Positions 10,819-34,227 of a stretch of DNA of 62,322 nt are shown here, piece by piece. This stretch comes from Candidatus Omnitrophota bacterium (GTDB lineage Bacteria; Ratteibacteria; UBA8468; MWAK01). The notes beneath the pieces were generated by a model. The model ran no database searches, was not told where the DNA came from, and saw only the letters and a program-made list of their open reading frames with translations. Location of the stretch: assembly GCA_043797665.1 (NCBI GenBank), contig JAZDPL010000043.1:1-62322 (forward strand), written 5' to 3'. The position numbers were made by a program, and so were the translations under genes. Position 1 is the stretch's first letter. The number at the start of each line of letters is the position of its first letter.

Positions 10819-11049
10819 ATGGAAGTAACCGTTATTAACCTGAAAGAGGTGATTTATCAAGGGAACGCCAAGAGTTTAATCGTCCCGGGTGAAAGTGGTG
10901 TTTTTGAGGTATTGCCTTTCCACAAAGATATTATCAGCCGGCTGATAAAAGGAGAGGTTGTAGTAGATGGTAATTTTCTGAAGATAAAGCGGGGGGTGGT
11001 CAAAGTGATTAAGAATGAAGCCACGGTGATTGTCGAGGCAGAGGAATGA
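10819..11049 (+). CDS. atpC: F-type ATPase epsilon-like subunit (N-terminal beta domain only)
   Basis: IYQGNAKSLIVPGESGVFEVLPFH matches the epsilon P-G-x-x-G-x-x-x-(V/I)L-P-x-H pattern. No C-terminal helices. Confidence 0.8.
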   Translation: MEVTVINLKEVIYQGNAKSLIVPGESGVFEVLPFHKDIISRLIKGEVVVDGNFLKIKRGVVKVIKNEATVIVEAEE

Positions 11050-11264: not shown

Positions 11265-11266
11265 GG

Positions 11267-11289: not shown

Positions 11290-11295
11290 TTTCTA

Positions 11296-12210: not shown

Positions 12211-12217
12211 ACTTCCT

Positions 12218-14715: not shown

Positions 14716-15297
14716 TTAAGGGACTGGGACTGGTGCTGTTGCCACGAGCATGGAAATTTCAATACTGCAGCGGGCAACCGGTGATTTTGCGCCTTTGGGG
14801 GTGAGGTGAAACTTTTCCACCCTTAAAATCTGGGTGGAACATTCTATCCGTGAGAAGAGGACAAGAATTCTCTCCAAGGGGGCTTCACATTCTAAACTCA
14901 GAGTTTCCTTCCTGAACGGCGCTGCTTCTTCGGAACCGATGGGCCTGATATTCAACAGGTTAATATCTGAATTTTTAACCATGGTTTCTACTTCTTTCAA
15001 AAAAGTCAGTACCGTTTCGTCTTCAGGAGTCGTCTTTTGCGGGAAAATCTTTTCCAGGTATAACCGGTATTTTCTGCCTTCTTCTTCTATTTTATCCTTT
15101 CGGGCCAATATCTGAAGACTATTTCTGAGAGCCTTTCTCTTTTCTTCAATCTCCGTATCCAGAGATTTTATCCTGGAAACAATCGGAATCAAAATCACCC
15201 GGGAGATGAACGATATAACGAGTACAGAAACCGTAAGGTAAAAGAATATCTTTTCTCTTTTTGATAACTTAGCGATAAACGATAGAATCTTTTTCAT
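14716..15297 (-). CDS. PilO/GspM-like inner-membrane platform protein
   Basis: LSKREK + TM + coiled coil + ferredoxin-like C-terminus. Follows PilM/N. Confidence 0.75.
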   Translation of the reverse strand: MKKILSFIAKLSKREKIFFYLTVSVLVISFISRVILIPIVSRIKSLDTEIEEKRKALRNSLQILARKDKIEEEGRKYRLYLEKIFPQKTTPEDETVLTFLKEVETMVKNSDINLLNIRPIGSEEAAPFRKETLSLECEAPLERILVLFSRIECSTQILRVEKFHLTPKGAKSPVARCSIEISMLVATAPVPVP

Positions 15298-16751
15298 TCT
15301 ACGGCTCCTTTTTCCAACAAGGAGGTAATGTCGAAGTTCACGAAACTTTTGCTTTCCTCTTCTATTCTTTTTGTCCCCCCTGTTTTGACTTCCTTAAAAT
15401 ACTTCGATTTTTCCATTTCTTCGATCAGATTAAAGACGGACGTGGTGGAGACGGCAGTGCCCCTGATTACAAAGGTACCTCCCTTTTGGTCGAAAGTAAT
15501 TTCCGCGAGATACATTTCCGCAGGCGGAATCAAACGATATAACTCGGCCATAACTTCTAAGCAATAATTCTGCCGGGATAAATAACGTTGCACTAATTGA
15601 ATCTGAGAAAAGAGTTCTTCAATAGGCCCGGTTTTTTCACCGGTCTGCCGGTAGTCCTCGGTCAGGGTTTGCAGATAACTTTCTTTGCGATAAATTCTGT
15701 TGATTAATACTCCACCGATAAGTATCATAATGGTTATGAGCGAGATACCGCATTGAATCAGGTTACGGCTCCTCTCCTGGAATGCTTTTCGGGCTTTGAC
15801 CTCTTCCGGAATAAGGTTTATCGTGAGCCGGTCAGAAACAAAGAAAGGGGCAAGAACGTCACAAAAAGAAAACATCCGGTTTTCTTTAATTGTCTTTAAT
15901 GCATCCGGGGAGAGGGGCAAATCATGGTGATACGGAAAAGGGGTAAGGGACAAAGACAGGTTTTTCAGTTCTTCTTCCAGAAGGTTCGCATTCTCAACTG
16001 CGCCGGTTAAGAAAAGTTGTTTGGGGACCAGGTCTATTTCCTCCGCGCGGTAAGAGTCCAGAGATTTTTCCACCTCCGTTCTGATTTTTGGAAGAAACTC
16101 ATCTTTTTCCTCGGCCAAGGTCTGAGTCCCAAGGGAGATATTGCGGCTAAAGATTACCTTACCCCTGAGGAGAACCGTAAAATCAGAGGTTGTCTTGTCC
16201 AGGTGAAGAATTCCGACCGGTTCTTTCTCCTGTTCTAAATGTAAACTTCTACTTGCCAGGCTTCCCAGCGCTTCCGGTTTAAAGGCGACCCGGCTTATTT
16301 CTAAACCCGCCCGGTTTAAGATGCTGAATTGCCTCCTTATCGCATTGCGGTTAGCCAGCACCAGCAAGATTTTGGTATACTTCTCATGGTGACGTCCGAT
16401 ATCAAGATAATCAATGATAATCTCTTCCCGGGAATAAGGGCTGTATCGGCTGGCTTGTAAGTTGATGATTTCTTTTATCTCCTGGGGGTTGAGGGAAGGG
16501 ATGGCAATATTTTTGGTAACGCAGACGTTGGAGGGAACCAGGCTGATGACCGCAGGCTTTTTTTTGAGCCGGGCACGTTCCAAAAATTTCCTGATAACGG
16601 AAACAATTTCCTGGTCATTCAGGTTTTTGATGTCCTGCACCATCAGATTCGCTACCAGCCTCTTTTTCAGTTCGGAAATTTTACCGTGGCTGATTTTCAG
16701 AATCTGGCTGTCTAAGTCTACCACCAGGACATCTTTTGCTAAGTGCCACAT
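15294..16751 (-). CDS. PilM-PilN fusion (GspL-like) assembly protein
   Basis: Actin-like N-terminal part (VVDLDSQILK, LFLTGA), INLIP PilN motif, TM, then periplasmic domain. Confidence 0.85.
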   Translation of the reverse strand: MWHLAKDVLVVDLDSQILKISHGKISELKKRLVANLMVQDIKNLNDQEIVSVIRKFLERARLKKKPAVISLVPSNVCVTKNIAIPSLNPQEIKEIINLQASRYSPYSREEIIIDYLDIGRHHEKYTKILLVLANRNAIRRQFSILNRAGLEISRVAFKPEALGSLASRSLHLEQEKEPVGILHLDKTTSDFTVLLRGKVIFSRNISLGTQTLAEEKDEFLPKIRTEVEKSLDSYRAEEIDLVPKQLFLTGAVENANLLEEELKNLSLSLTPFPYHHDLPLSPDALKTIKENRMFSFCDVLAPFFVSDRLTINLIPEEVKARKAFQERSRNLIQCGISLITIMILIGGVLINRIYRKESYLQTLTEDYRQTGEKTGPIEELFSQIQLVQRYLSRQNYCLEVMAELYRLIPPAEMYLAEITFDQKGGTFVIRGTAVSTTSVFNLIEEMEKSKYFKEVKTGGTKRIEEESKSFVNFDITSLLEKGAVE

Positions 16752-16763
16752 AGGGATAACCCC

Positions 16764-17774
16764 TTACTCTTCCCGCCAGTACTTGATTTGCCCTTTTCGG
16801 TTACAGACCGCCACGATTGCATACGAATCATTCCGGTTATTTAATCGGGCAATACTTTTAATCATAAAGTTGTTTGACGCGGTAGTAAATCTGCCGGCTA
16901 AATTGCTGAATTGGCTTATCTCGTCCGGGCCCAGGACTACAAACTGATTCAGCGTGGCTACCACGTCCGGTGAAGTAAAGACATTATCATCCGGAGTACC
17001 TTCAACCCCGTCCTGCCCTTTTCTGAAAGTCAGGATTTTAGCGGCTAACCTTTCATCCAGACCCAGGGCTCGCAACACCTCAAGAGGTGCGGTATTAATG
17101 TTTATTTTGCCCTCGGTATATACCGTAACATATTCCCTGATTTGCTCAAAAATTTCCCGGCTCATTCCTTTAACCAAGAGCAACTCCTCCGGTATTTCGT
17201 ACGGGCCGTCTTTTGCCTCGTAAGGAGTCGAGGAGTAGCGGTAGTCACTGTCTTCAGCCCCGTATTGAGGATGTTCGTATGAAGAATTCTCGTCACGCCA
17301 GTCGATAATGCAGTAGGATAAATTTTCTGCTTTTGCCTCGTCTATATCGGTGACAATCTGGAAGAGACGCTTTAACGTTTTCTGGTCCGCGGTGTTGATA
17401 CTTATCTTGCGCTCTTCGTCCTCACAGCCATAGCGGGTTTGGGTTATCTTATTCTTATCGGTATCGAAAGACCGGTAATCATAACTAACGGTAAACCTTC
17501 CTTCTCCCACCGACTGTTCCCGGAAATCGGTGACATTATTGCTCCAGGTTCCATTCAAAGTGTCGTATTCCGGAGTTACGTCTTTCTTTATCTTCCAGGA
17601 GGCGGTTTTAATCCCGGCTTCGGCGATCAGATGCAGATTCTTTTTTACCTCCATTTTCTTTAAAAACAACAGTTTTTGACTGATGCCGAAACCTAAGTTA
17701 ACTGCAACAATGGTTAAGGTTGCCAAAGCAAAAAGGGCAATGATTAAGATGCTGCCAGACTTAGGGGCTGTCAT
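16764..17774 (-). CDS. gspK: Type II secretion minor pseudopilin GspK
   Basis: G|SILIIAL N-terminus. Motifs DEERKISIN, IIDWRD, EELLLVKGM, GKININTAP. Confidence 0.9.
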   Translation of the reverse strand: MTAPKSGSILIIALFALATLTIVAVNLGFGISQKLLFLKKMEVKKNLHLIAEAGIKTASWKIKKDVTPEYDTLNGTWSNNVTDFREQSVGEGRFTVSYDYRSFDTDKNKITQTRYGCEDEERKISINTADQKTLKRLFQIVTDIDEAKAENLSYCIIDWRDENSSYEHPQYGAEDSDYRYSSTPYEAKDGPYEIPEELLLVKGMSREIFEQIREYVTVYTEGKININTAPLEVLRALGLDERLAAKILTFRKGQDGVEGTPDDNVFTSPDVVATLNQFVVLGPDEISQFSNLAGRFTTASNNFMIKSIARLNNRNDSYAIVAVCNRKGQIKYWREE

Positions 17775-18330
17775 AGACAGCCCCTTTAACCGTCTTTCCA
17801 TCTAAGTAGATTGCGGTTATTTTTACCGAAACGGGTAACTTTTTTTCCTCCTGCCATTTATCTTTCCATTTGTATAACTTAGCATCTTCGTCGTAGACGT
17901 AATAACAGAAAGTCAGGTTTTTGATGTTTTTTACCAATATTTGTTCCGGAGGTTTTTTGTGTTGATAAACCTCAGAATAGCCTGCCTGGCTCTTTTTTAC
18001 GCTTTGGGTCAGAGTATCAAAAAAATAGGTGACCTGTCCGATACCCGTATTATTCTTCGTTCCGGGAAGGGTAATAATGGCAGGAAAAGATACCCGCTCC
18101 GGTGTCCCTTCAAACTTCATTCCGGTGTACCGAAGCCCGTTTTTCAAATCACGCGAGAACTTTTCCGAAAAAATCAGGAAATCTTCTTCCGGCGATTCCC
18201 TGGTCAGTACCTGCCATATTTTCAAACCGTTGTTGAGTGTCGTAAATACCGCAATGCCAATAATGCCTAAGAGAACCGAGACGAACAACATCTCCATCAA
18301 GGTAAATCCCCGTTTCGACGAAATATCCAC
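17761..18330 (-). CDS. Prepilin-type minor pseudopilin (GspJ/PilW-like)
   Basis: KRG|FTLME cleavage/methylation motif. C-terminal LPVSVKI. Confidence 0.85.
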   Translation of the reverse strand: MDISSKRGFTLMEMLFVSVLLGIIGIAVFTTLNNGLKIWQVLTRESPEEDFLIFSEKFSRDLKNGLRYTGMKFEGTPERVSFPAIITLPGTKNNTGIGQVTYFFDTLTQSVKKSQAGYSEVYQHKKPPEQILVKNIKNLTFCYYVYDEDAKLYKWKDKWQEEKKLPVSVKITAIYLDGKTVKGAVYDSP

Positions 18331-18342
18331 GGATATTCTTAG

Positions 18343-18396
18343 AGGTTTGATTTATCAAACCCGATAGGATACGGGCGTCATAAATGTCGGCCCTAC
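18343..18396. repeat. Degenerate GTAGGG/CCCTAC-family REP element
   Basis: GGTTTGATTTATCAAACC hairpin, ending in GGCCCTAC. Confidence 0.55.
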
Positions 18397-18413
18397 ATTT
18401 CAAGGGGATGGTA

Positions 18414-18683
18414 TTATTTACCCTTCACGGTCTTTTCTTCTAATTTCTTTTCCAGTTCCTGTACCCGTTCCCGTAATTTTTCTTTGCCGCCTTTTTTCAT
18501 CATATACTTTATTCTGCCCATCATTCCCAAGCCGCATAACATCAGGAGTACGCTGGCTAAGGAAGGGTTACAGGTAAAACCCGGCAAAGGGACCCTTTTG
18601 TTGAAAATCAGGGTATTGACACCAACGTCACCCAGGTACGACAATATAGCCACCGCTACCACAATTAACGCCCACACTATCAT
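18414..18683 (-). CDS. Small two-TM membrane protein with C-terminal coiled coil
   Basis: AAGGAGG RBS, two hydrophobic segments, KEKLRERVQELEKKLEE. Confidence 0.75.
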   Translation of the reverse strand: MIVWALIVVAVAILSYLGDVGVNTLIFNKRVPLPGFTCNPSLASVLLMLCGLGMMGRIKYMMKKGGKEKLRERVQELEKKLEEKTVKGK

Positions 18684-18713
18684 ACGCTTCCTCCTTTTTC
18701 ATTTTATTTTATA

Positions 18714-19100
18714 TTATGCTCCGGCATAAAAGGTCCGGGAAAGATTTATCTGCCGTCGGCCCTCCTTCCAGAAACAAGAAAGGGTTATCCGATACTCATT
18801 CGCATCTCTGGAGATGGACTGAATATCCCCTTGCCAGAAGACCGGTTTGTTTCTTACGATAAAAGTTCCACTATTGGAAGAGGGGAGGGGGGTTTTTGTC
18901 CGGCTGATTTTGTCGTCTATTTCCCAGGTCTTCCCATCAAGCCATTCCCGTACTTCCAGGGAAGTGGAATAATAACTTAACGCATTCACGCAGATGAGGA
19001 AAGATTGATAGATTACAACCAATCCAAACGAAAGAACCGCCAAGGTGACCATGATCTCTACAAAAGTAAATCCTCTTTTACGGTTAATTAGTGACGTCAT
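18714..19100 (-). CDS. Prepilin-type minor pseudopilin (GspI/PilV-like)
   Basis: RKRG|FTFVE motif. Confidence 0.85.
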   Translation of the reverse strand: MTSLINRKRGFTFVEIMVTLAVLSFGLVVIYQSFLICVNALSYYSTSLEVREWLDGKTWEIDDKISRTKTPLPSSNSGTFIVRNKPVFWQGDIQSISRDANEYRITLSCFWKEGRRQINLSRTFYAGA

Positions 19101-19518
19101 CTTCGGTACCGGCTTGTCCGTCCCTGCCTAAAGAAGACAGGTCGTACCCCCCGGTGTTACGTGTACCGGGGCATTTATACTGATATTCCTTTCCCCAGGG
19201 GTCAAGGGGTTTCCTTTCTAAGTAGGGTCCGTTCCAGTGTGTGGCGGAAGGGACTCTGGTCAGGAGAGCGTTTAATCCTTCTTCGGTGGTGGGAAAGGCC
19301 CCGTTGTCCAATTCGTATAGTTTTAGCCCGGTGGCAATATTGACGGTGATATCCGCTTTTGTCGCCGAGACCTTTGCCTGTTCCGAACGACCGGTCAGCC
19401 TGGGCATCGCCATGGCGGCTAATACTCCGATTATGATAACCACCAGCATCAACTCAATGAGCGTAAATCCCTGCTTAAAGCATGCAGGGGCAAGCCCCTT
19501 ACTTCGTTTCTTTTTCAT
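19084..19518 (-). CDS. gspG: Type II secretion major pseudopilin GspG
   Basis: G|FTLIELMLVVIIIGVLA, LYELDNGAFPTTEEGL, WNGPYL, DPWGKEYQY, SLGRDGQAGTEDD. Confidence 0.93.
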   Translation of the reverse strand: MKKKRSKGLAPACFKQGFTLIELMLVVIIIGVLAAMAMPRLTGRSEQAKVSATKADITVNIATGLKLYELDNGAFPTTEEGLNALLTRVPSATHWNGPYLERKPLDPWGKEYQYKCPGTRNTGGYDLSSLGRDGQAGTEDDVTN

Positions 19519-20309
19519 ATCGCCTCCCGAATATGTTTTTTCCATTGTGTTTCCAGATCGGACAGAGATTTTAAAGACGGACTGTAAGAAAACCGCAGTG
19601 CGTCTTCAAAAAGTTCCCCCTCTTTCAATCGTCTGCAGAAAGTCGTGAATTTGGTTGTCCCATGTTGAGTAATCAAAAAGTTCACCAGCGAAAGGGATTG
19701 GTGATAAAAGATATTGATGAACTTCTCGTATTTTTTGCTTTTCAGGTCAATGTTGTCCAGTTTAATCAGTACAAACAGGGGAATAAACCGGTTCTGCCTT
19801 AAAAGGTACGCATCGTATTCCTGGACGGAGCCACTTCTCCTTTTTTCTGTCCACTGCGCCACTCCTTCATCTAACCACAAAGGAGCATTATTTTTGAAAC
19901 CGATAAAATCCCGAAATATCAAATGGGTTAATTCGTGGGGCAGAATTGTTTCCATGAAGTTTTTATTTCCCCAGTAGGTACAGATGGTCCGCCGGTCATA
20001 AAAGGTAACCCCTTGAGTCCAGCCGGGTTGGTTGGTTGCGCTAATCATGGTATCGTGGTCCGGATAAGTATAGATTTTGGCACGCTCTTCCCAGAGCCAG
20101 AAATTTTCATATCTCTGGTAGCCTAAATCATAGGCAATGCTCTTATAATATTCTTCAGACGCGTTCAATATTTTTTGAGCAAAGTCTTTGTCCGCGGTGA
20201 AACAGACGATAAAATGCTGACTCCTGGTTTCTTTCCAGTTCTCTTCCGCCCGGGAAGATTGGATAAAGAAAGAATAAAAAATCAAGGCTGTGAACAGTAA
20301 CTTTTTCAT
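19515..20309 (-). CDS. Exported gluzincin metallopeptidase (peptidase MA-like)
   Basis: Signal peptide. HELTH (HExxH) plus PLWLDEGVAQ. Confidence 0.8.
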   Translation of the reverse strand: MKKLLFTALIFYSFFIQSSRAEENWKETRSQHFIVCFTADKDFAQKILNASEEYYKSIAYDLGYQRYENFWLWEERAKIYTYPDHDTMISATNQPGWTQGVTFYDRRTICTYWGNKNFMETILPHELTHLIFRDFIGFKNNAPLWLDEGVAQWTEKRRSGSVQEYDAYLLRQNRFIPLFVLIKLDNIDLKSKKYEKFINIFYHQSLSLVNFLITQHGTTKFTTFCRRLKEGELFEDALRFSYSPSLKSLSDLETQWKKHIREAI

Positions 20310-20325
20310 TGCGGACGCAGACCCA

Positions 20326-21531
20326 TTACTTGACCATCATATTTATCTGGAAGATCGGAAAGAGCATGGCGATGACGACAAAGCCTACCATCAGACCCAC
20401 CCCTAAGATTAGCAGTGGTTCCACCAGAGCCGTAGTTGTCTGAAGCAAATCAGCGGTTTCCTTTTCGTAAAAGTCGGCTATCTCGGCAAAGGTTTCACTG
20501 AGCCTGCCGGATTCTTCTCCTACGGTAATCAGGTTTGTTACTAACGGAGGAATCAGAGGCTCCTTCTTCAGGGCTTCTCCGAAAGAATGTCCTTCTTCCA
20601 CCTCTTTCTGACTGCGTCGTATCCCTTCCTGGAGCGTCTCACTTTCCAGGATGGGAATAGCGGTTTCAATGGATTTCAGGATAGGGATACCGCTTTTGGT
20701 TAAAAGTTCTAAAGTCCGGCAGAGTCTTGACAGTTCCACCTGTACGAAGAATCTGCCGAGGAAAGGCAGACGCAGTTTAGACCGGCTCCAAAACGTTTTT
20801 TTCCCGGTAAACTGTTGCCGGAGGAATTGGACGACGATAACCAGACCTATCACCACCAGAAACCACCAGCGTCTGATGCTGGCGCTTACCGTAAGAACAA
20901 TTTTGGTGGGCAGCGGCAATTCCTGGCCCAGAGCGGAAAAAACCTGGGTCAGTCTGGGCATGACAAAAATGAGCATAAAGATAATGGTACCGATACTGGT
21001 CAGCACCACAAAAAGCGGGTAGGTTAAGGCGGCGCGTATCCGGCTTAAAATTTCCTGCTGTTTTTTCAGGTGCTCGGAAATTCGGCTGAGCGATTCTTCC
21101 ATGGTGCCGTTAACCTCACCCGCCTGGACCATGGTGACGTAAAGGGAAGAAAACAGATAAGGGTACTCGCTCAAAGCCGCAGAAAGTTTCTCACCGTTTT
21201 CGATTCTGCGTTTAATCTGGCTGAGGATAGATTTAAAATTGGCATTTTCACATTGTTCGGAAATAATATCCAAACTTTTCAGGATGGGGACCCCGGAACG
21301 TAATAAGGTAGACAATTGACGGCTAAAATTGACCAGGTCTTTTGTCTTTATTCGGCCGGAGAAGGTAGCGGAAAGGGAAGAAGAGGTCTGGCGGGAAACC
21401 TCTTCTATTTTGAGGGCAAAATAACCGGACTTTGCCAGGAATTCAATGACTTCTTCTTTACTTTGTGCCTGCAAAGTATCCTCGATAATTTCGTCCGGTC
21501 CTTTTTTAGCACGATATTTAAAAATAGGCAT
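20326..21531 (-). CDS. gspF: Type II secretion F / PilC platform protein
   Basis: MPIFKYRA, FSRQLSTLLRSGVPI, AGEVNG, ALTYP, GEESGRL, LVEP. Confidence 0.93.
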   Translation of the reverse strand: MPIFKYRAKKGPDEIIEDTLQAQSKEEVIEFLAKSGYFALKIEEVSRQTSSSLSATFSGRIKTKDLVNFSRQLSTLLRSGVPILKSLDIISEQCENANFKSILSQIKRRIENGEKLSAALSEYPYLFSSLYVTMVQAGEVNGTMEESLSRISEHLKKQQEILSRIRAALTYPLFVVLTSIGTIIFMLIFVMPRLTQVFSALGQELPLPTKIVLTVSASIRRWWFLVVIGLVIVVQFLRQQFTGKKTFWSRSKLRLPFLGRFFVQVELSRLCRTLELLTKSGIPILKSIETAIPILESETLQEGIRRSQKEVEEGHSFGEALKKEPLIPPLVTNLITVGEESGRLSETFAEIADFYEKETADLLQTTTALVEPLLILGVGLMVGFVVIAMLFPIFQINMMVK

Positions 21532-21532
21532 C

Positions 21533-21883
21533 TTAGGAGGTATACCTTGTAAGGCGCGCCTGGTCTGCGGAGGAGAGGTCAAGGAACAACACACTGACAT
21601 TATAAATTTCTTCTCCGTCTTCTTTAATCTTTATGGTGCGGAGAACATTGGCGGCACACTCTATCGGGTCCAAGCCATCCAATAGTTCTACCTTCAGGTT
21701 CAGGATGGTATTGGTCGGAATAGGCTGGTAAGAGACAAAAGCCAATCCACCGATGCTGAGGTCTTTTGCCACCACAAAATACTCTTTCGGGTCGGAAACC
21801 GGTCTGATTATTTTATACCTTACGTTGGTATTCTCTTCAAACCGGGTGAAAATCCTTTTTTCCGCTGGAGTTATTTCATTCAT
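21533..21883 (-). CDS. PilZ-domain protein
   Basis: EKRIFTRF (RxxxR) and DLSIGG (DxSxxG). Confidence 0.85.
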   Translation of the reverse strand: MNEITPAEKRIFTRFEENTNVRYKIIRPVSDPKEYFVVAKDLSIGGLAFVSYQPIPTNTILNLKVELLDGLDPIECAANVLRTIKIKEDGEEIYNVSVLFLDLSSADQARLTRYTS

Positions 21884-23594
21884 ATACTTCGGCCAGAGTT
21901 GCATTGCTGACCTCTTCGGGAGTCGTCAGACCGTTGATTACCCTATGCCATCCGTGCTGACGCAAAGTAACCATTCCATTTTCTATCGCTGCTTTTTTTA
22001 TCTGGCTGGCGGGAACCTTTTTCAGTACCAGGTCGTGAATCTTTTCTGACAACAGGAGAATTTCGTAGATGGCGGTTCTTCCGTAATATCCGAGGAAGTT
22101 GCATTTTTCACAGCCCTTTCCCGCATATACCTTCACTTTTTCTGCCGGGATGTTGCAGTCTTTGGCAATTAAGGACTTAATTTCCGGAGATGCGGAAACG
22201 TCTTCTTCTTTACAATGAGGGCAGATGGTCCTTACCAGCCGTTGGGCAATCAGCGCCAGAACACTGGAGGTAATGAGGTACGGTTCAATGCCCATATCGA
22301 TCAGCCTGGTGACGCCGGAAGCCGCATCATTGGTGTGAAGGGTGGAGAATATTAAGTGACCGGTTAAAGCGATACGGACTGATATCTCCGCTGTTTCTCT
22401 ATCCCGTACCTCTCCGACCATCATCGCATCCGGGTCATGCCGCAGCATACTTCTTAAACCGGAAGCAAAATCCAGGCCGATATGGGATGATACCTGGACC
22501 TGGGTAATATTTTTCATTTCGTATTCAATCGGGTCCTCTAAAGTTATTATCTTTTTCTTTTCGGTAGTGATTTTATTCAGGATGGCGTAAAGGGTGGTAG
22601 TTTTTCCGCTGCCGGTGGGACCGGTAAGAAAGACTATACCGTAAGGCTTTTTTACCAGTTCTTCCAATAACCTCATATCGTCCGGGAAGAAACCCAATTT
22701 CTCCAGGTTGAGGAGAATCTGCATCGGCAGGAGCCGGATGACGACACTCTCGCCATAGGGAGTGGGCAAACAGGAGATTCTTAAGTTCATAGCCTCATCG
22801 ACGATTCTCACGATGGCTCGTCCGTCCTGGGGAAGCCGGTGTTCCACGATGTTGAGGTTGGACATTATTTTTAAACGGGAAATGATGGAATTTAAAAACT
22901 GCTTAATCTGGATCGGAGTTTGTGCTTCCTGTAAAATCCCATCGATTCGATAACGCAGTCTTATCCTCTCCCGGTAAGGTTCGATGTGGATATCCGTAGC
23001 CCGTTTTTTGTAGGCGTCAAGAAGCATCTGGTTGACCAGACGGATGACCGAATGTCCTTCTTCGGTATTTTCGAGGTCGGTAACTTCTTCTATTCGTTCG
23101 GTGACGGGTAAATCTTTCGTTGTCCCCAGTATTTGTTGAATCGTTTCTGCACCCAAACCATAGAGCGATTTCAAGGTGTCATTTACGTCGTCTTCGGTCG
23201 CCAGAACTTCCGTAACCTTATAACCCAGATGAGTTCCAATCTCGTCCTGTAAGATGACACTTTGGGGATAGCAGACCGCGATAGTCAGTACGCCATTTTC
23301 TATGTTGAGCGGGACGAACTTGTAGTACGATACGACTCGGATGGGAATTTTCTCCGCCAAGGATTTGTCGGGGTGAATCTTCTTCAGGTTGACAAAGGAA
23401 ATCGCTAATCTCTCACCTAAAGATTTCAGCACCTCTTCTTCGGATAGGGCGGTTTCCTTAAGGAGAACTGATTTGAAACTTTGGCCGGTGCTCCGGACTT
23501 TTTCCTCCACGGAATTCGCTGATTCCTCACTGAGCAGTCTTTTTTCCAGAAGAACCTGGCGCAGGATAATGTCAAATTTGTTTTTCATAATCAT
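21876..23594 (-). CDS. gspE: GspE/PilB assembly ATPase
   Basis: ATDIHIEP, RLPQDGR, GPTGSGKTTT, LEDPIEY, LRHDPD, GEVRD, STLHTND, CPHC...CEKC. Confidence 0.95.
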   Translation of the reverse strand: MIMKNKFDIILRQVLLEKRLLSEESANSVEEKVRSTGQSFKSVLLKETALSEEEVLKSLGERLAISFVNLKKIHPDKSLAEKIPIRVVSYYKFVPLNIENGVLTIAVCYPQSVILQDEIGTHLGYKVTEVLATEDDVNDTLKSLYGLGAETIQQILGTTKDLPVTERIEEVTDLENTEEGHSVIRLVNQMLLDAYKKRATDIHIEPYRERIRLRYRIDGILQEAQTPIQIKQFLNSIISRLKIMSNLNIVEHRLPQDGRAIVRIVDEAMNLRISCLPTPYGESVVIRLLPMQILLNLEKLGFFPDDMRLLEELVKKPYGIVFLTGPTGSGKTTTLYAILNKITTEKKKIITLEDPIEYEMKNITQVQVSSHIGLDFASGLRSMLRHDPDAMMVGEVRDRETAEISVRIALTGHLIFSTLHTNDAASGVTRLIDMGIEPYLITSSVLALIAQRLVRTICPHCKEEDVSASPEIKSLIAKDCNIPAEKVKVYAGKGCEKCNFLGYYGRTAIYEILLLSEKIHDLVLKKVPASQIKKAAIENGMVTLRQHGWHRVINGLTTPEEVSNATLAEVYE

Positions 23595-24068
23595 TCAATT
23601 ATTCATTTTTTCAATCATTCCAATCAGGGAACTCTTTATAAATTTCCGGTATTTGTCAATAACCGCGGTCATATCGTCAAACGAAGTGAGAACGATCTTC
23701 GCCTTTTTAGGGGCGACCTTTTTCGCCACCTCCGCAATGGTTGCGGCGTCCAGGGGGTCTACGACCGCTACCGTAACCGAGTTATCGTCTTCCGCGATGG
23801 GGAAACATTTATGGTCAATAATAAAAAAAGTCGGAAATTTATTGCCCAGGTTCAAATCCAGGTACATATTTTTGATGCCTAGATAAAGCATTCCGAACTG
23901 TTCCGCCAGGGTTTTTAATAACGCCACTTCGGAAATAATTTTCCTTTTTACCAGGATAGCGCCCAAGAATTCCTTGGAAAGATACTGTTCCATCAGGGCT
24001 TTCTGAAGTTCCTCGTCGGTAACGAGTCCTTTTTCAATTAAGAGTTCACCCAATCGTTTTTTACCCAT
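23595..24068 (-). CDS. Stand-alone MshEN / GspE-N domain protein
   Basis: RLGELLIEKGLVTDEELQKALMEQ followed by a second half-motif FLGAILV...LAEQ. No ATPase domain. Confidence 0.85.
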   Translation of the reverse strand: MGKKRLGELLIEKGLVTDEELQKALMEQYLSKEFLGAILVKRKIISEVALLKTLAEQFGMLYLGIKNMYLDLNLGNKFPTFFIIDHKCFPIAEDDNSVTVAVVDPLDAATIAEVAKKVAPKKAKIVLTSFDDMTAVIDKYRKFIKSSLIGMIEKMNN

Positions 24069-24079
24069 CTTTCTCCTTG

Positions 24080-26309
<2,230 letters not shown>

Positions 26310-26343
26310 ATTTTTTCGTATAATTGCTCATGTAGGGCAAACC

Positions 26344-27837
26344 TTACATATGTTCCTGAAGGTAATGTTTTAAGACTTCGTTAAGCTTGTTCTTTGCTTC
26401 GGCAGAGAGTTCTTTGGTAGTCCTCAGGTCTCCAAGTATTTCGGGATACCCCTGCTGGATGAGATTGATGAATTCAGATTCAAACTTTTTTATCTCCGGC
26501 AGGGAAAACTGGTCCAGGATGCCGAGGTTTAAAGCGTAAAGATAACATATCTGGACTTCCACCGGAACCGGTTGATGCCGGTTCTGAGTGATGAGGTGGG
26601 TTATAACTTCACCATGTTTGAGCACCTTTTCGGCTTCTTTCGAAATAGAACTTGAACTTATCCGGCTCATTCGTAAAAGTTCCTGATAACGCAGGTAGTC
26701 TAACCGGAGGCGTTTACTTACCTCCCGCATTGCGGGCCACTGCGCTTTACTCCCGATACGGGAAACCGAAAGTTTCACGTCGATGGCCGGTTTAATGCCT
26801 TTACGGAAAAGGTCGCTGTCAAAATATGTCTGACCATCGGTCATGGAAATCAGATTGGTAGGAATGTAGCCGGTGAGGTCGCCCTGAAGTATTTCTATTA
26901 TGGGTAAAAACGTCATCGACCCGCCTTTCAACTCCGGTTTTAACCGACCGGCTCTTTCCACCAATTGGGAGTGGATATAGAAGATGTCCCCGGGATACGC
27001 TTCTCTGCCCGGCGCCCGTCCTAAAAGGAGGGATATCTGGCGGTAAATCCAGGCGTGCCGGGTTAAATCATCAAAGACCACCAGGACGTTTTTGCCCTGG
27101 TACATGAAATATTCACCCAACATTGCCGCGGTATAAGGGGCAAGATATTGTTCTCCTACGGAAGCGGAAGCAATTCCGCTGACCACAACCGTATAGGAAA
27201 GGGCTTCTTTTTCGCAGAGAAGGTCCAGAGTTTTTAAAAAACTGGTGTAAGGCTTTCCAATGCAGGCATAAATGCATATTACGTCTTTTCCTGCCTGGTT
27301 TAGTATGGTATCAACCGTGACCGTTGTCTTGCCGGTTAGCCGGTCACCTAAAAACAACTGGCGTTGTCCTTTGGCGATGGGAAAAAGGGTGTCCAGAACG
27401 ATAGTGCCGGTTTCCAGGGTATCCTGGACCGGCAGACGGTCTAAAATGGCTGGTGCCTCCCGGAACACCGGCTGAACTTCCTGAGTTTCAATCGGTCCCA
27501 GGTTGTCTACCGGTTCGCAAAAACTGTTCACCACCCGGCCCATAATCTCTTCGCCGACCGGCAGGTAGAGAGGCTGTCCTTTATTGTAGACTTCATCATT
27601 CAGGCTGATGCCGGACGAGGAACCGAATAATAACACCTGAACCGTATCTTCTTTAAATCCCATTACCAGACCGCGGCCGCCGTTTTCAAACTCTACTATC
27701 TGACCGTTGAAACAGGAGGGGAGTCCGTTTACGTTTACGATGAATTCGTGAATCGATTTTACGTAACCGACCTCACGGACGTCAACCGCCAATGAAGGCG
27801 GGGTACTTTTCAATTGTGGATTAGCCCCCTGATGCAT
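26344..27837 (-). CDS. atpA: F1 ATPase alpha subunit (divergent)
   Basis: GQRQLFLGDRLTGKTT, FDDLTRHA, PGREAYPGDIFYIHSQLVERA, SVSRIG. Confidence 0.95.
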   Translation of the reverse strand: MHQGANPQLKSTPPSLAVDVREVGYVKSIHEFIVNVNGLPSCFNGQIVEFENGGRGLVMGFKEDTVQVLLFGSSSGISLNDEVYNKGQPLYLPVGEEIMGRVVNSFCEPVDNLGPIETQEVQPVFREAPAILDRLPVQDTLETGTIVLDTLFPIAKGQRQLFLGDRLTGKTTVTVDTILNQAGKDVICIYACIGKPYTSFLKTLDLLCEKEALSYTVVVSGIASASVGEQYLAPYTAAMLGEYFMYQGKNVLVVFDDLTRHAWIYRQISLLLGRAPGREAYPGDIFYIHSQLVERAGRLKPELKGGSMTFLPIIEILQGDLTGYIPTNLISMTDGQTYFDSDLFRKGIKPAIDVKLSVSRIGSKAQWPAMREVSKRLRLDYLRYQELLRMSRISSSSISKEAEKVLKHGEVITHLITQNRHQPVPVEVQICYLYALNLGILDQFSLPEIKKFESEFINLIQQGYPEILGDLRTTKELSAEAKNKLNEVLKHYLQEHM

Positions 27838-28546
27838 TTTTGACCGCTTTCTGGATTCTATGTTTCAAACTGCTGTCCGCCACTATATCGCCGATGGTAA
27901 CCATAATACCGGCAATCAGGTTAGGATTAGTGTCTGCTTCTACCGGTATTTTGCGGCCTAATGTTTTGGACAACTTTTCCCGGATATTTTCTTTTTCGGG
28001 GTCGCTTAGCGGCAGGGCAGAAATAATCTTGACCTCGATGTTTCCTTCCGGCAGATGAAAGAGTTCAAGACCCATGTCACTTTCCAGGAATTCCTGAAGG
28101 TAGAAGGAATGAATAACCTGACGAACCCTATCGGGTAAAACCGTAGCGATTAACTGACATGCTTTTTCGCCTGACCGTATTTCAATCTCGCGGTCCAATT
28201 CGTTTTTCAGTACCTGACAGCTTTTTTCAGCCTGGGCAAACATCTGGTCAGATTTTTCTCTTGCGTCCTGGAGAATTCTGTTCTTTATCTCTTCGGTTTC
28301 TTTCCGGGCATCGTCGGTGACCTTTTGGGCTTCGGTTCTCGCCGCGGTGGTCATTTCTGCGGACATCCTTTTAGCGGATTCCAATTGTTTTTCCACGTCG
28401 GTCTGTTTTCTGGTGTAGTCGTCATCCAGTTCCTGAAGATGCGAAGTCGCTTCCGTGATGTTGCGCGCCAGGATATAGCGCAAAAACAGGACCAAACCGA
28501 CAAAGATAACTAAGAAAAGAGTGGCAATCTGGATAAAGAGCATCAT
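27821..28546 (-). CDS. Fused F-ATPase b / delta (OSCP C-terminal) stator-like protein
   Basis: N-terminal TM and Ala-rich coiled coil (b-like). C-terminal SALPLS...NPNLIAGIMVTIGDIVADSSL (delta-like). Confidence 0.8.
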   Translation of the reverse strand: MMLFIQIATLFLVIFVGLVLFLRYILARNITEATSHLQELDDDYTRKQTDVEKQLESAKRMSAEMTTAARTEAQKVTDDARKETEEIKNRILQDAREKSDQMFAQAEKSCQVLKNELDREIEIRSGEKACQLIATVLPDRVRQVIHSFYLQEFLESDMGLELFHLPEGNIEVKIISALPLSDPEKENIREKLSKTLGRKIPVEADTNPNLIAGIMVTIGDIVADSSLKHRIQKAVKNASGG

Positions 28547-29712: not shown

Positions 29713-29746
29713 CGTTCCTCCTCTATAAAATTTATGGGTTAAGGGC

Positions 29747-31453
29747 CTAATATTCTCTTTCTACTGGTTTTTCCTGTTTTTTTCCTTCCGGTGTTATCAT
29801 AACCTCGTTCCCGAGGGGTTTTTCCTCGCCGGTTATCAACTCGTCTCCGGTAATGATATGAGGAGTGAGCAGGATGAGCAGTTCCGCCCGCACGTTTCTG
29901 GTCGTGGTATCCTTGAAGAGTTTGCCTATCAAGGGGAGCTTACTTAAAAAAGGAATACCCTCACTGTCCTCTGTTTTTTCTTCTTTACGCAGTCCGGCAA
30001 TCAGGAGTGAAACTCCGTCTTTCACGAAAACAGTACTTTCGACCTGGGCGGTATCCACAATCGGTATCTGGTTGCCGCTGGAAGTAGTATAGTAACGGAC
30101 GACATTGCTGATTTCAGGTTTTATAATCATGGTGATATATCCTTCATCGTTAATGGTAGGTGTCACCAGGAGTTTTATGCCCACGTCAATGAAATGGACT
30201 TCTTCGGAAACGGTAGTGGTCGAGGCAGCCTGGGCGGTGGTGCTAGTGCTGTAGACTTCTTTGGTTCCAATGAGAATTTTTGCCTCCTGTCCGTCAACCA
30301 CCGCTAATTTCGGTGCGGAAAGAACCTTGGCGGTGCCAAAGGTTTGCAGGAAGTTAAGTAAGCCTTCATACTGGTTGCTACCGGTTACCTGACCAAAATA
30401 GACCGAGCCGGTCCAACTTGATTTGGCCAAAGCCGGAAGTGTGGAAGTGGGGTCAATTTTCGAGTAGTTGTCAATGGAGGTATTTCCCATCCGGTACGTG
30501 GAATCGTAGGGATGGGAACCGATGAACTGAACGCCCTTGGTGGTCAACTGGGAAAATAGTCCCTCCCAACTGATACCAAATTGTGAACCCTTATTTAAGT
30601 CCACTTTTATGATATTGGTTTCAATCAGTACTTCTTTTGTTTTCTTGTCTAATTGTTTAATCAGCTTTCTGATGTCGTCCATCCTTCGGGCCAAGGCTTG
30701 AACGATTATCTGGTTGTTCTTTTCGTCCGCAACGATAACGCCCACTTTTTTCCCGGCTAAATGGGCGGTAAGACGCGCTTCAACTTCTTTTGCTTTGGCA
30801 TACTGGAGGTTAAATACTTCCAGGGGAACACCGCCTTCCAGAGAGAATAAAGTCTGTTCCATCACAGACAATTTTTCTTTGGTGTCAATAAGAATCACGC
30901 TTCCGGTTTCTTCATCCACCAGGATTCTGCCCACTTCGCTCTTAAGTCCTTCCAATATTTTAAAGACCTTGTCCGGGGACGCGTAAGTAAGCTTGAAAAT
31001 TCTCATTTCCCTGGGGTCGGAGAATTTTCTTCCGTACATCGTCTCGTATTCCCTGGCGGTCATAATGGAGTAGATATCGCCCTTCTTTTCGTAGGCTAAG
31101 TCATTGGAGATGAGGACAATGTCAAGGGCGTCTTTCAGGGTAACATTTTCCACCGAGAGCGTGATTCGTCCGCTGATCCCTTTGCCGATGGCAAAGTTCA
31201 GTTCTCCGGTTTTGGCAATATATTTTAAAGCCTCAATCGCATCTATATTTCGCAAGTCCAGGGAGACCTTTTTGTTTAATCCGGTTTCTTCTCCGGTCTC
31301 TTCGGCTGAGAGCATTACAGACAGGCTGAGGATTAACCCCAGAAGTATAAAAACCTTCATGATCTTAAGACTAATTAAATATTTTGACGTAGGGGTCGGA
31401 TTCATCCGACCCGCGGGCTCGATAAATCGAGCCCCTACAATTTTCTTAATCAT
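29747..31453 (-). CDS. gspD: Secretin (GspD/PilQ family)
   Basis: STN/N domains (VSLDLRNID, LQYAKA), EVLIETNI, VLSAPKL, DVGIKLLVTPTI, GIPFLSKLPLIGKLF, ELLILLTPHI. Alternative start at 31360. Confidence 0.93.
   Translation of the reverse strand: MIKKIVGARFIEPAGRMNPTPTSKYLISLKIMKVFILLGLILSLSVMLSAEETGEETGLNKKVSLDLRNIDAIEALKYIAKTGELNFAIGKGISGRITLSVENVTLKDALDIVLISNDLAYEKKGDIYSIMTAREYETMYGRKFSDPREMRIFKLTYASPDKVFKILEGLKSEVGRILVDEETGSVILIDTKEKLSVMEQTLFSLEGGVPLEVFNLQYAKAKEVEARLTAHLAGKKVGVIVADEKNNQIIVQALARRMDDIRKLIKQLDKKTKEVLIETNIIKVDLNKGSQFGISWEGLFSQLTTKGVQFIGSHPYDSTYRMGNTSIDNYSKIDPTSTLPALAKSSWTGSVYFGQVTGSNQYEGLLNFLQTFGTAKVLSAPKLAVVDGQEAKILIGTKEVYSTSTTAQAASTTTVSEEVHFIDVGIKLLVTPTINDEGYITMIIKPEISNVVRYYTTSSGNQIPIVDTAQVESTVFVKDGVSLLIAGLRKEEKTEDSEGIPFLSKLPLIGKLFKDTTTRNVRAELLILLTPHIITGDELITGEEKPLGNEVMITPEGKKQEKPVEREY
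31389..31438. repeat. REP doublet GTAGGGGTCGG...CCCCTAC inside the secretin 5' end
   Basis: GGGTCGGATTCATCCGACCC and GGGCTCGATAAATCGAGCCC hairpins. Copies at 39672, 43110, 56269. Confidence 0.85.
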
Positions 31454-32199
31454 TGCAATTGCAATTTTGCGGTTGTTCCCTTGTAACCTAAGATTATCTT
31501 GTCCCGTAAGACCTGCTCTATTTTTATTCCACCTTCAATGCCGTCTCCCTTTTTCAGAAAGTATGTCTTGTTTGTCTTGGTATTTTCAATCATCACGTCA
31601 GGGTCTGAGGACCAGGATACACCGACTAACTTCAGGTTTCCCGCCAATTCTTCCAATTCCTCCTGAGGGGTCGGTTCCCTTTTTGGTGGTGGAGTATTTA
31701 TTTCTTCCTCCGGCTGCTTCAATATGGAAATCACTACCTTTTCCGGTTCCTTCTTCTTTTCCGATTCTTGCTTCCCGAAGTCAAAAATATTCCGATGTCC
31801 GAACTTTTCCGTAAGGTCAGGTGGTTCTTTCAAAAGGGCTCCGGTATCTTCTTCCGTTCCCCCTACCTTGATGGCAGGGGACCCGCCTATTTCGTCTTTT
31901 TCTGTTTCTTTTATCACGGGAGGCTCCGCAGTGTAAACCCCTTCTAAGTTACGTGATGGGCTGAGAACGGTGTGGACAAAGTAAATAAGGACTCCCCCGG
32001 TTATGAGCGCCAGTATTCTGGTTATGTCTCTGATATCGGTAAAAGTCTTTCTTTTTTGGGAAAGGCCAGGACCCTTTCGAAAAGAGACATGCGAAAATAT
32101 CCGCTTGCTGCTTGCTCTTACCTGTTCGGTTATAATTCTTTTGGGTGATTCGATCAGGGTTAAGAGTCTTTTCTCTGGTGTCTCTCTAATTTCTGCCAT
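31450..32199 (-). CDS. GspC/PilP-like protein
   Basis: TM, then RNIF, LKLVGVSW..P.VMIEN, YFLKKGD. Directly upstream of the secretin. Confidence 0.75.
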   Translation of the reverse strand: MAEIRETPEKRLLTLIESPKRIITEQVRASSKRIFSHVSFRKGPGLSQKRKTFTDIRDITRILALITGGVLIYFVHTVLSPSRNLEGVYTAEPPVIKETEKDEIGGSPAIKVGGTEEDTGALLKEPPDLTEKFGHRNIFDFGKQESEKKKEPEKVVISILKQPEEEINTPPPKREPTPQEELEELAGNLKLVGVSWSSDPDVMIENTKTNKTYFLKKGDGIEGGIKIEQVLRDKIILGYKGTTAKLQLQ

Positions 32200-33026
32200 C
32201 CGGTTTCCCTTTCTTCCCACAAAACTTCTTCAATTATTTTTTCGTCGATCACCGGCTTGTTGTCCAGGATGAGTTTTTTTAAAGCGTGGTAACACATTGC
32301 CATCACCCGCCGGGGGTACCCGCCGGTAACCTGGTAAATCTTTTTAACCGCCCCGTCTTCAAAAAGATGGGTGCTGCCTTCGTAGCCGGCCTGCTGCAGG
32401 CGGTAATTAATCAAAGCTAATGTTTCTTCCTCATCTAAAGGATTTAAGGTGTATTTAAAACTAATCCGGTCAAAGAGGTTTGGAATATTGACGATGGTAG
32501 AATAGAGTTCTAATTGTCCTAATAGCACCAATTGTAAAAGTTTGAACTGGTTTGTTTCATAGTTCAGGAGAATCCGTAAGACTTCCAGAGAGGTCGGGTT
32601 TAGTTTTTGTGCCTCGTCAACGATTAAGACGATGGTTTTGTTTTCGGTTACCCCCTTTTGAAACAGGAAGTGTTCCAGTAATTCTTTTAAATTTGAGGTA
32701 CTGGTTCCCTGGTTGTTGTCCGTTGGTCCGACCAGGTTTCTTACCAGACAGTCCAGAAAGGAATATTCGTCCTCAAATGACGGGTCAAAGATGAGGTTGA
32801 AGATAATATCCTCTCTTTTCTTTAACTCCTGAATCAGTTTTCGGGAAAGGGTGGTTTTTCCGGTTCCGATGTCTCCCAGGACCACACTTAATCCCCTCTT
32901 CAGCCGTATTTCAATTAAACTGTTGGTCAGAGCGCGTTCATGGCACTTGGAAAGATAAAAAAAGTCCGGGTCAGGACTGGTGGAAAAAGGTTCCTTCTTT
33001 AATCCAAAAAGTTCCAGGTAACTCAT
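32160..33026 (-). CDS. ExeA/GspA-type AAA ATPase
   Basis: YLELFGLKKEPFSTSPDP, GDIGTGKTT, VDEAQ, LLGQLEL, TGGYPR. Confidence 0.92.
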   Translation of the reverse strand: MSYLELFGLKKEPFSTSPDPDFFYLSKCHERALTNSLIEIRLKRGLSVVLGDIGTGKTTLSRKLIQELKKREDIIFNLIFDPSFEDEYSFLDCLVRNLVGPTDNNQGTSTSNLKELLEHFLFQKGVTENKTIVLIVDEAQKLNPTSLEVLRILLNYETNQFKLLQLVLLGQLELYSTIVNIPNLFDRISFKYTLNPLDEEETLALINYRLQQAGYEGSTHLFEDGAVKKIYQVTGGYPRRVMAMCYHALKKLILDNKPVIDEKIIEEVLWEERETGWQKLERHQRKDS

Positions 33027-34093
33027 TTTTTACCGCTCTGTTTAACAATCTCTAAGTAAGATTTGATGTGAGCGCTCTTTCGCAAGTCTTCCAGCCATTT
33101 GGGAAATCCTTCATATTTCTTTATCATTTCCACCCGTTCGTAATAAGACTGACGCCGCTTTGGGAATTCGTTTTCGTCCGCCTTCCTTATTTCCAGAATT
33201 TTAGAGACGCCGTAACCCTTATAAACAGGAACCGGTTTATAAAATGAACCGACCGGAAGTTCTAACATCCGGTAAACCGCATCTTGCGGATACCCCCACA
33301 TATTCATTAAAAATTCTACGCAGACAAATCCCGGTCTCTGGAAACGAAAAACACCGCCGGGACCGGGGTTTTTATCGTTGTTTCTTTGCCAGTATTCAGT
33401 ATCTTTTTTCACCGTCTCTTCACAGAGCTGTTGGTTCTTTTCCCAGTAATCCGAGTCTTTGTTAACCTGTTCGTAAAACTCCTGGGCTTTTTTCAGTTCA
33501 TCAGACTGAACCAGTTCCAGGCTTAAGGTGTTATATTCATTCAGGAATTTTTGGTGGGCTTCTTCTTCGGTTACCGAAACTTTAATGCTGTCGATGACCT
33601 GCTTTCTCAGTTTTTCCACCTTGAGTAAATGTTCGATTTGATTTTCAAACAGGTCGGTCTTGTATCCCAAAGTGTCTTTCGCCCATTTCGTATAGGTTTC
33701 GGGGTCTTTCTTCCAGTCAAATGAGACGTTGTAACTTTTGAGCATCTTGGTTATTTCCTCTTCCGATTCGGTTCTGGAAACGTTAATTCCTCTCCGGAAT
33801 GCTTCGTAGGAAAGCAAGAGTTCGTTCCAGACCTCTTTTTCTATTTCCTGGTCAGTTTTAGGCTCCCCCCGCCATCTGGTACCGAAGATACGGATAATTC
33901 CCTGGGCAAAGTAGTAATTCGAAATCGGGACCGGAATTCCGAAGAACTCGCCGGCAGCCTCTGCCTTTTTTTGTTCCTTGTCTTTTGTTTCTGCACTGTG
34001 AACAAAGGAGGTCAATAGAAATAAAGAGGAAAGGGCAAAGAACACGACAAAACCACTCGTCCACCGGCTGAACTTTATGCTAAGACCTTTCAT
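33023..34093 (-). CDS. Exported SurA/PrsA-like chaperone-type protein (tentative)
   Basis: Signal peptide. Motifs LLSYEAFRRGINVS, VSVTEEE, WLEDLRKSAHIK resemble SurA-N/PpiC-flank segments. Confidence 0.55.
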   Translation of the reverse strand: MKGLSIKFSRWTSGFVVFFALSSLFLLTSFVHSAETKDKEQKKAEAAGEFFGIPVPISNYYFAQGIIRIFGTRWRGEPKTDQEIEKEVWNELLLSYEAFRRGINVSRTESEEEITKMLKSYNVSFDWKKDPETYTKWAKDTLGYKTDLFENQIEHLLKVEKLRKQVIDSIKVSVTEEEAHQKFLNEYNTLSLELVQSDELKKAQEFYEQVNKDSDYWEKNQQLCEETVKKDTEYWQRNNDKNPGPGGVFRFQRPGFVCVEFLMNMWGYPQDAVYRMLELPVGSFYKPVPVYKGYGVSKILEIRKADENEFPKRRQSYYERVEMIKKYEGFPKWLEDLRKSAHIKSYLEIVKQSGKK

Positions 34094-34129: not shown

Positions 34130-34158
34130 ATAATACTAAAAAACAGATTTTTTGTCAA
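34130..34158 (-). promoter_or_regulatory. Sigma70-type promoter for the T2SS/F-ATPase operon
   Basis: Minus strand TTGACA (34158-34153), 17 bp spacer, TATTAT (34135-34130), upstream of ATG 34093. Confidence 0.7.
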
Positions 34159-34227
34159 ATCAGAGAAAGGTTTTTTCCCTTTACAGATAAGGGAAGAGGA
34201 AGATTACAAAAACTCCATTATTTTGAG

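Follow-up and report, generated by a model that had tools for sequence, protein, structure and literature searches.

Why should the catalytic head of a rotary ATPase be encoded in the midst of a secretion operon? The question is raised by a 62,322-nucleotide stretch of DNA, hereafter the window, which is contig JAZDPL010000043.1 of assembly GCA_043797665.1, labelled Candidatus Omnitrophota bacterium (in our numbering, contig C68 of genome G000). Here a Pfam scan places genes for F1 alpha, gamma and beta, and for a b-delta fusion, between the secretin and coiled-coil-tetratricopeptide repeat (TPR) genes on one side and MshEN and GspE on the other, within an operon resembling a type II secretion system (T2SS). 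The answer that we favour, at a probability of roughly 0.45, is an ATP-hydrolysing F-type rotor, uncoupled from ion flow, that serves the T2SS-like machine and a giant fibre of immunoglobulin (Ig)-like repeats. To judge from the sequence, this ATPase has probably lost the ion channel together with the residue that binds the ion and, since it is co-encoded with such a machine and fibre, probably makes no ATP but burns it to move the fibre. The pairing of F-ATPase and pilus genes is already published for Omnitrophota; particular to this copy are its presence in another small phylum, its split layout, and a subunit c without any acid.

An F-type gene set in two convergent operons

As the first-pass annotation of this DNA had noted, the F1 genes share one strand and tight junctions with their T2SS-like neighbours: 21 open reading frames (ORFs) run from 34093 down to 14716 on the minus strand, and among their 20 junctions 11 overlap, one abuts and the largest gap is 83 nt, some overlaps being overstated because starts are longest-ORF calls. 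The promoter proposed for them (TTGACA-17-TATTAT, 34158-34130) does match the sigma-70 consensus at 11 of 12 positions, which makes it a candidate by consensus match in a sequence with nine promoter-like sites against 4.3 after shuffling. The extent given, 14716-34093, was real but incomplete, for a second part of the system had been overlooked on the plus strand at 1-11264, comprising the giant, an anchor gene, epsilon and a c-like subunit. The last two were found at 10819-11264 by hidden Markov models (HMMs) from related loci, with Pfam confirming. Thus the bare F1 motor first envisaged is in fact F1 with b-delta, epsilon and a carboxylate-free c, and in this genome the system forms two convergent operons in which anchor, epsilon and c are still one unit. 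Sigma-70 matches on the plus strand at 8989-9017 (12/12, inside the 228-aa gene) and 8517-8545 (11/12, at the giant's 3' end) could provide this unit with a promoter of its own.

Is the arrangement a peculiarity of one genome? A profile of gamma homologues led to 71 related loci, mostly labelled Omnitrophota, and synteny was counted over those with enough flanking DNA. Their common order is giant ORF, two small ORFs, b-delta, alpha, gamma, beta, MshEN, GspE, GspF, peptidase, pseudopilins, L and M, the small ORFs being an epsilon N-terminal domain and a c-like subunit. MshEN/GspE follow beta in 55 of 57 loci, so that the F1-T2SS linkage, whose conservation had been in question, is not due to chance. 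Likewise, c lies upstream of b-delta in 43 of 44, epsilon and c are adjacent in 42 of 43, and the anchor precedes epsilon in 39 of 42 and is joined to the giant ORF in 30. In G000 and its sister G041 the super-operon has been broken differently, with the anchor-epsilon-c unit of G041 lying apart from the giant and its beta no longer adjoining gspE; the unit itself is kept in both. Three genomes (G047, G059 and G071; loci L175-L180) carry two T2SS-linked ATPase copies each, the second on deeper branches, and L180 is a reduced copy with no c-like or gamma match.

The giant consists of about 22 Ig-like repeats of about 100 aa followed by a helical C-terminal region, and homologues occur in 42 related loci; encoded as it is with anchor, epsilon and c, it gives substance to the earlier suggestion of a giant adhesin. 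Contig C3 is open at its 3' end and there, by homology to the closest locus, L028, probably encodes the N-terminal 1318 aa of the giant. No sequence overlap joining C3 to C68 was found, and the protein would exceed 4000 aa with the C3 piece included; this probable N-terminus bears, by inspection, a signal-peptide-like segment. Upstream of the giant in both G000 and L028 (C3:3356-4708 and L028:13836-15146), what appears by inspection to be a Y1-transposase-like N-terminus is fused to a domain of the 218-aa exported protein. The AlphaFold2 (AF2) model of the anchor shows a hydrophobic segment at the N-terminus, then a beta-sandwich and a bundle of three helices, and at the C-terminus a transmembrane (TM) helix. 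Profile scans gave it no family match, the ESM Atlas returned Omnitrophota clusters only, and a fold search that barely probed the beta-sandwich found generic helical bundles only, the best Z of 10.2 being below the meaningful range for bundles.

The catalytic features listed in the first-pass annotation are present in the window translations (Walker A and GERxREG in beta, SVSRIG in alpha) and throughout the related loci, with GERxREG in 63/63 betas, Walker A parsed in 62/63 and SVSRIG in 58/58 alphas. Because both subunits pass the atpD and atpA cut-offs (beta 543 > 463 bits, alpha 514 > 484), genome surveys count them as ATP synthase. Gamma is indeed very divergent, at 67.5 bits against the TIGR01146 cut-off of 194, and is nevertheless predicted to fold as an F1 gamma: its AF2 model (predicted local distance difference test, pLDDT, 87.2) matches F1 gamma with TM-scores of 0.84-0.88 at 15-18% identity among the top four PDB matches. 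Such divergence could explain why a 2026 preprint (10.64898/2026.06.07.730766), in the portion available to us, records alpha/beta in 125 of 176 Omnitrophota genomes and gamma in 30. A gamma 92% identical to the window copy is present in other assemblies. Epsilon is without its C-terminal helices in 41/41 related loci, and the DELSEED motif of beta is DELSxxD in the T2SS-linked copies versus DELS(D/E)ED in 10/10 housekeeping copies. Loss of the epsilon helices, together with a reduced DELSEED, removes a brake on ATP hydrolysis.

Subunits c and a, and ion coupling

The c-like protein of the window keeps the R-N-P loop; Thr occupies the column of E. coli Asp61, no Asp or Glu occurs in its 72 aa, and its glycine stripe is degraded. 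Across 49 c-like proteins (the window's, those of 45 loci, two second copies and that of G041, one duplicate having been dropped), the carboxylate is absent in 20, replaced by Gln in 14, Ala in two, and Gly, Ser, Phe and Thr in one each, in a family that is otherwise conserved (mean column identity 76%). All 30 housekeeping c subunits in carrier genomes retain it. On the alpha tree, a quick LG+G4 tree, the carboxylate state changes 10 times, at least six of them forced by starred branches. The glycine stripe has given way to larger residues, with Val at position 27 in 45 of 48, and these may widen the ring. Fused forms also occur: P0186 and P0191 join two c-like hairpins and keep one or both of their two Glu, a V-type-like doubling, and P0195 (968 aa) and P0208 (447 aa) contain at least 10 and six fused canonical-type hairpins, respectively, nearly a single-chain c ring, in which many Trp at Gly positions suggest that TGA is read as Gly.

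Subunit a (PF00119) was found neither in this genome, which is 86% complete, nor in 41 of the 71 carrier genomes, all incomplete metagenome-assembled genomes (MAGs). The remaining 30 carriers hold 31 a genes, 30 of which adjoin a canonical c with Glu and one of which is at a contig end; every placed a gene sits in a canonical a-c-b operon. A second, canonical beta is present in 13 of 18 searched a-bearing carriers, at 757-835 bits versus about 505-571 for full-length T2SS-linked copies. The genome does have a separate ATPase, of V type, with A, B and K on contig C12, next to genes that look on inspection like E, C, F and D, and a subunit I match on C63, so that energy conservation appears to be served elsewhere. 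The 89-aa ORF of the operon was considered as a substitute for a and rejected, being absent from the 71 loci, and a complex prediction with four c-like copies scored 0.01, weighing neither way. The literature searched, from which subscription journals were mostly missing, yielded no published account of a missing a or a carboxylate-free c. The earlier view that the locus does not encode an ATP synthase finds support, in that no a was found, c is not normal and the T2SS linkage is conserved; we are fairly confident that the module is ion-free and has a mechanical role.

Secretion machine, relatives and host

What kind of machine accompanies the ATPase? By Pfam the locus encodes a secretin, GspE, GspF, GspG, J and K together with I/H-, L/M- and C-like genes, the same core set as a T2SS (GspC-M), to which it adds the F-type rotor, the anchored giant fibre and stand-alone MshEN and PilZ proteins. 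On this gene content, with GspG, J, K and a GspE of its own, the machine is T2SS-like rather than a retractile type IVa pilus (T4aP), and the type IV pilus (T4P) named as an alternative in the first-pass annotation finds no support. No prepilin peptidase is encoded in the locus, to which that search was confined. The window also lacks PilT, as had been observed, although this is weak evidence since the genome carries four PilT genes, over cut-off, on other contigs; an F1 replacing PilT was rejected on the same ground and on the GspE and T2SS-type pilins of the locus. Several further T2SS/T4P sets, each with a secretin or GspE/PilB of its own, are found on contigs C21, C22, C75, C86 and C93, as are the four PilT genes.

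In quick IQ-TREE runs on a subset of loci plus named-record references, with no bootstrap, the T2SS-linked betas form one clade (29 rows, support 94) and the alphas another (18 rows, support 93), apart from housekeeping, N-ATPase and Mycoplasma Type 3 rows. The window copies nest among Omnitrophota-labelled T2SS-linked copies and apart from the respiratory copies of the same genomes; the G003 and G005 betas (49-50%) fall among housekeeping betas and were rejected as orthologues. The report on Omnitrophota to which the first-pass annotation alluded is real (Seymour et al., 2023; PMC10066038): the part accessible to us describes a divergent 'symbiotic', non-respiratory F-type ATPase beside T4aP genes, with 57 of 66 contigs having the ATPase within 10 kb of pilus-like genes. 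The present locus shares the non-respiratory alpha/beta clade, judged on Omnitrophota-labelled loci with the paper's own sequences left out, and the pilus-like genes within 10 kb. It differs in its phylum, probably Ratteibacteria, its two convergent operons, its acid-free c and a T2SS-like machine rather than T4aP, whereas the missing a, degenerate c, short epsilon, b-delta and anchor/giant link are undescribed in that part of the paper.

The Mycoplasma Type 2/3 F1-like X0 ATPases, in the accessible parts of the sources (Beven 2012, PMC3369863; Berlureau 2026, PMC12994834), comprise alpha, beta, gamma, an epsilon-like subunit and three unrelated proteins, with no recognisable c or b. In both systems an F1 that lacks a normal F0 has been turned to a surface task, while the present locus keeps a c-like subunit and b-delta. 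The parallel drawn earlier survives as a functional analogy; the family HMM scores are far below cut-off (beta 397/850 for MMOB1670 and 380/570 for MSC_0618; alpha 393/600 and 285/520). None of the 19 locus proteins scanned matched MSC_0620, MSC_0623 or MSC_0624, and beta matches the solved G1 beta at 323 bits versus 407-468 for canonical betas. With three Type 3 rows and no Type 2 sequence in the trees, alpha joined Type 3 with support 0, and the union of beta with Type 3 is not rejected by the approximately unbiased test (p-AU 0.147). The T9SS (type IX secretion system) GldLM-SprB gliding motor is a proton-driven inner-membrane rotor that moves a large surface adhesin; the likeness is one of concept only, its sequences being unrelated to this locus. 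N-ATPases, as described in the accessible part of Koumandou and Kossida (2014; PMC4154653), share the lack of a separate delta, a b with a long C-terminal extension (TIGR03321; Table 1) and the GP motif of c helix 1. They differ in gene order (beta-epsilon-I-R-a-c-b-alpha-gamma), in having a, which was not found here, and ion ligands, which are lost here, and in clade. No atpR/atpI was seen in the related loci, and the alt_F1F0 HMM cut-offs were missed (beta 475/752, alpha 489/750).

To which lineage does the host belong? Its phylum comprises 65 genomes in one class, and the c-like gene occurs in G000 only, with none in 31 near-complete genomes. PurH of G000 is 90% identical to that of the same genus, 67-70% within the family and 50-55% to four carrier genomes, and the best named matches of PyrB are Ca. 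Ratteibacteria, so the host phylum is probably Ratteibacteria and not Omnitrophota proper. Ratteibacteria are often labelled Omnitrophica, according to the portion available of West-Roberts 2023 (bioRxiv 10.1101/2023.11.21.568195), which also links giant genes to T2SS-like loci and reports that none of 34 Ratteibacteria genomes encodes a protein reaching 5000 aa. Mis-binning of C68 was rejected on the PurH identity within the genus, single-copy purH/pyrB/pyrR, a repeat found on 59 of 93 contigs and a tetranucleotide r of 0.977. Transfer of the locus into this lineage would be the simplest reading, given the place of alpha and beta among Omnitrophota-labelled copies. Long residence thereafter is suggested by the genome-wide repeat before the secretin and by the host-lineage 89-aa gene inside the operon, which has a 90% DNA match in G001 of the same genus, where the remaining operon was not found.

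The repeat before the secretin has 286 blastn matches over the contigs just counted, and it makes up the first ~30 codons of the secretin ORF, giving a false N-terminal extension; hairpin repeats resembling repetitive extragenic palindromes (REP) lie at ~31370-31440, ~18340-18410 and ~34225-34250. The stretch from c to the end of the convergent operon (11221-14713, +) holds genes for a 329-aa protein without assigned function, with no homologues in the 71 related loci, and an 831-aa HEAT-repeat membrane protein. Directly upstream of the operon, a 421-aa exported Ig-like and TPR protein (34305-35570, -) and tRNA-Gln (35711-35782, -) possibly mark an island boundary. Farther along are a PemK-like gene (42650-42994) and a restriction-like defence cluster of SNF2 helicase, Eco57I-type methylase, UvrD and DUF3800 (43239-52862, +).

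Table 1. Features of the two operons; minus-strand genes are listed in the order in which they are read
Position	Strand	Feature	Evidence
2..8536	+	giant Ig-repeat protein, C-terminal 2844 aa, no TM helix	PF10342 4.7e-28; contig edge cuts 5' end
8550..9236	+	anchor paralogue, 228 aa, without C-terminal TM helix	38.5% to anchor over 161 aa
9289..9945	+	exported protein, 218 aa	common only to closest related locus L028 and contig C3
9976..10818	+	membrane-anchor protein, 280 aa, abuts epsilon	AF2 pLDDT 86.1
10819..11049	+	epsilon, beta-sandwich only, 76 aa, without C-terminal inhibitory helices	PF02823 39.9 bits
11046..11264	+	subunit c-like, 72 aa	PF00137 26.4 bits, over cut-off
34130..34158	-	sigma-70-like promoter match	11/12
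33023..34093	-	SurA/parvulin-like periplasmic chaperone (a lead)	ESM Atlas features 0.94, TM 0.54; no Pfam match
32160..33026	-	ExeA-like AAA ATPase	AAA_22; TIGR03015 185 bits, below cut-off
31450..32220	-	GspC/PilP-like	weak PF11356
29747..31453	-	secretin (start likely ~31360)	PF00263, PF03958, PF07660
28543..29712	-	coiled-coil + TPR protein, membrane-anchored	
27821..28546	-	b-delta fusion: one N-terminal TM helix, coiled coil, delta C-terminal domain	PF00430, PF00213; TIGR03321 over 13-219
26344..27837	-	F1 alpha, arginine finger SVSRIG	
25467..26309	-	F1 gamma, sequence divergent, predicted fold canonical	
24080..25537	-	F1 beta (start likely ~25462), Walker A + catalytic Glu intact, DELSPAD replacing DELSEED	
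23595..24068	-	stand-alone MshEN protein, full cyclic di-GMP (c-di-GMP) motif	
21876..23594	-	GspE/PilB assembly ATPase	PF00437; TIGR02533 549 bits, TIGR02538 545 bits
21533..21904	-	PilZ protein, c-di-GMP motifs RxxxR + DxSxG	
20326..21600	-	GspF/PilC platform	PF00482 x2
19515..20309	-	exported peptidase MA (HExxH) family protein	PF13485; in 38/71 loci
19084..19545	-	GspG-like major pseudopilin	PF08334 107.7 bits
18714..19100	-	GspI/H-like pseudopilin	N_methyl
18414..18683	-	membrane protein, 89 aa, host-lineage insert outside conserved module	homologues 0/71 loci
17761..18330	-	GspJ-like pseudopilin	N_methyl, weak T2SSJ
16764..17801	-	GspK-like minor pseudopilin	PF21687, PF03934
15294..16751	-	PilM-PilN / GspL-like fusion	PF11104, PF05137
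14716..15297	-	GspM/PilO-like	weak PF04612/PF10741, below cut-off

Possible tasks of the rotor

How might such a rotor serve a secretion machine? In the reading that we favour, alpha3beta3 would burn ATP and turn gamma, epsilon and c, with b-delta holding the head and itself pinned by a membrane partner, possibly GspF or the L/M ring, that replaces a. The c ring would hand its torque to the TM helix of the anchor, whose periplasmic domains would grip the C-terminus of the giant. Passing the fibre through the secretin would fall to GspE and the pseudopilus, controlled by c-di-GMP via MshEN and PilZ, and rotation would then turn or reel the fibre so that the bacterium could attach to host cells or move on them. 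A bolder version, tentative and somewhat unlikely in its entirety, sees a transferable rotary motor that passed from Omnitrophota to another phylum, its ion-free c ring a mechanical clutch turning or reeling an anchored Ig-repeat fibre of more than 4000 residues through the secretin; if true, it would be a mode of attachment or motility distinct from both T9SS gliding and Mycoplasma gliding. Several points weigh against a rotor of this kind. Glu is kept in 29 of the 49 c-like proteins, the nearest relative's included, and a very divergent a could escape PF00119 in genomes that are all incomplete MAGs. The kept trio may reflect a single event, G000 and G041 being sisters, and a short epsilon also occurs in the housekeeping synthase of a member of the Bacteroidota (Parabacteroides). 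Contact of the rotor with the anchor or T2SS parts is deduced from the genes, and GspE and ExeA, the two other ATPases of the locus, could do the export.

The same gene evidence would be expected of an assembly or translocation device, one that uses the F1 head and c ring to feed, unfold or ratchet the giant (or the anchor) through the envelope during biogenesis and leaves the mature fibre unturned. In its favour, the substrate would be of formidable length should the C3 piece be part of it, the locus also encodes a SurA-like chaperone, a peptidase and an ExeA ATPase, and the larger residues in the glycine stripe of c may make for a wider ring; however, Sec could export a giant with a signal-peptide-like segment, GspE is present, and a full rotor with its stator suits torque more than a pore, and we consider such a device unlikely. 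Alternatively, the ATPase may be ion-free and co-regulated but mechanically separate, with some other envelope task such as membrane shaping, an attachment-pole scaffold or an ATP sink. The bond between rotor and secretion is one of gene linkage, which in G041 no longer places beta beside gspE, and some genomes hold reduced copies (L180); set against this, nearly all loci have the ATPase genes lodged between the anchor and MshEN/gspE, and rearrangement has not parted epsilon-c from the anchor, which makes a separate task quite improbable.

Could the enzyme be ion-coupled after all, a true F-ATPase or ATP synthase with a borrowed or unrecognised a? That alpha and beta pass the synthase cut-offs, that so many c-like proteins keep their Glu and that 30 of 71 carriers, all MAGs being incomplete, do have an a gene would favour it, but the window c has no acidic residue at all, Glu has been lost repeatedly in the family, and the placed a genes belong to canonical a-c-b operons, with none found in 41 genomes; we hold it to be highly doubtful. 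Finally, a locus found in one of 65 genomes of its phylum, rearranged, invaded by repeats and a host gene, and with the c Glu lost on its branch, could be a decaying transferred island. With every ORF open and full length, catalytic and c-di-GMP motifs intact, the 92% identical gamma in other assemblies and a composition near that of the genome, this seems scarcely credible.

Should the reading of an ATP-driven rotor uncoupled from ion flow be right, the locus would provide a natural F1-c rotor without chemiosmosis, its rotation coupled to a secretion machine, and the acid-free c subunit would be the cleanest case for experiment. It would form a bridge between rotary ATPases and the devices of protein export and motility, in predatory or host-attached nanobacteria.

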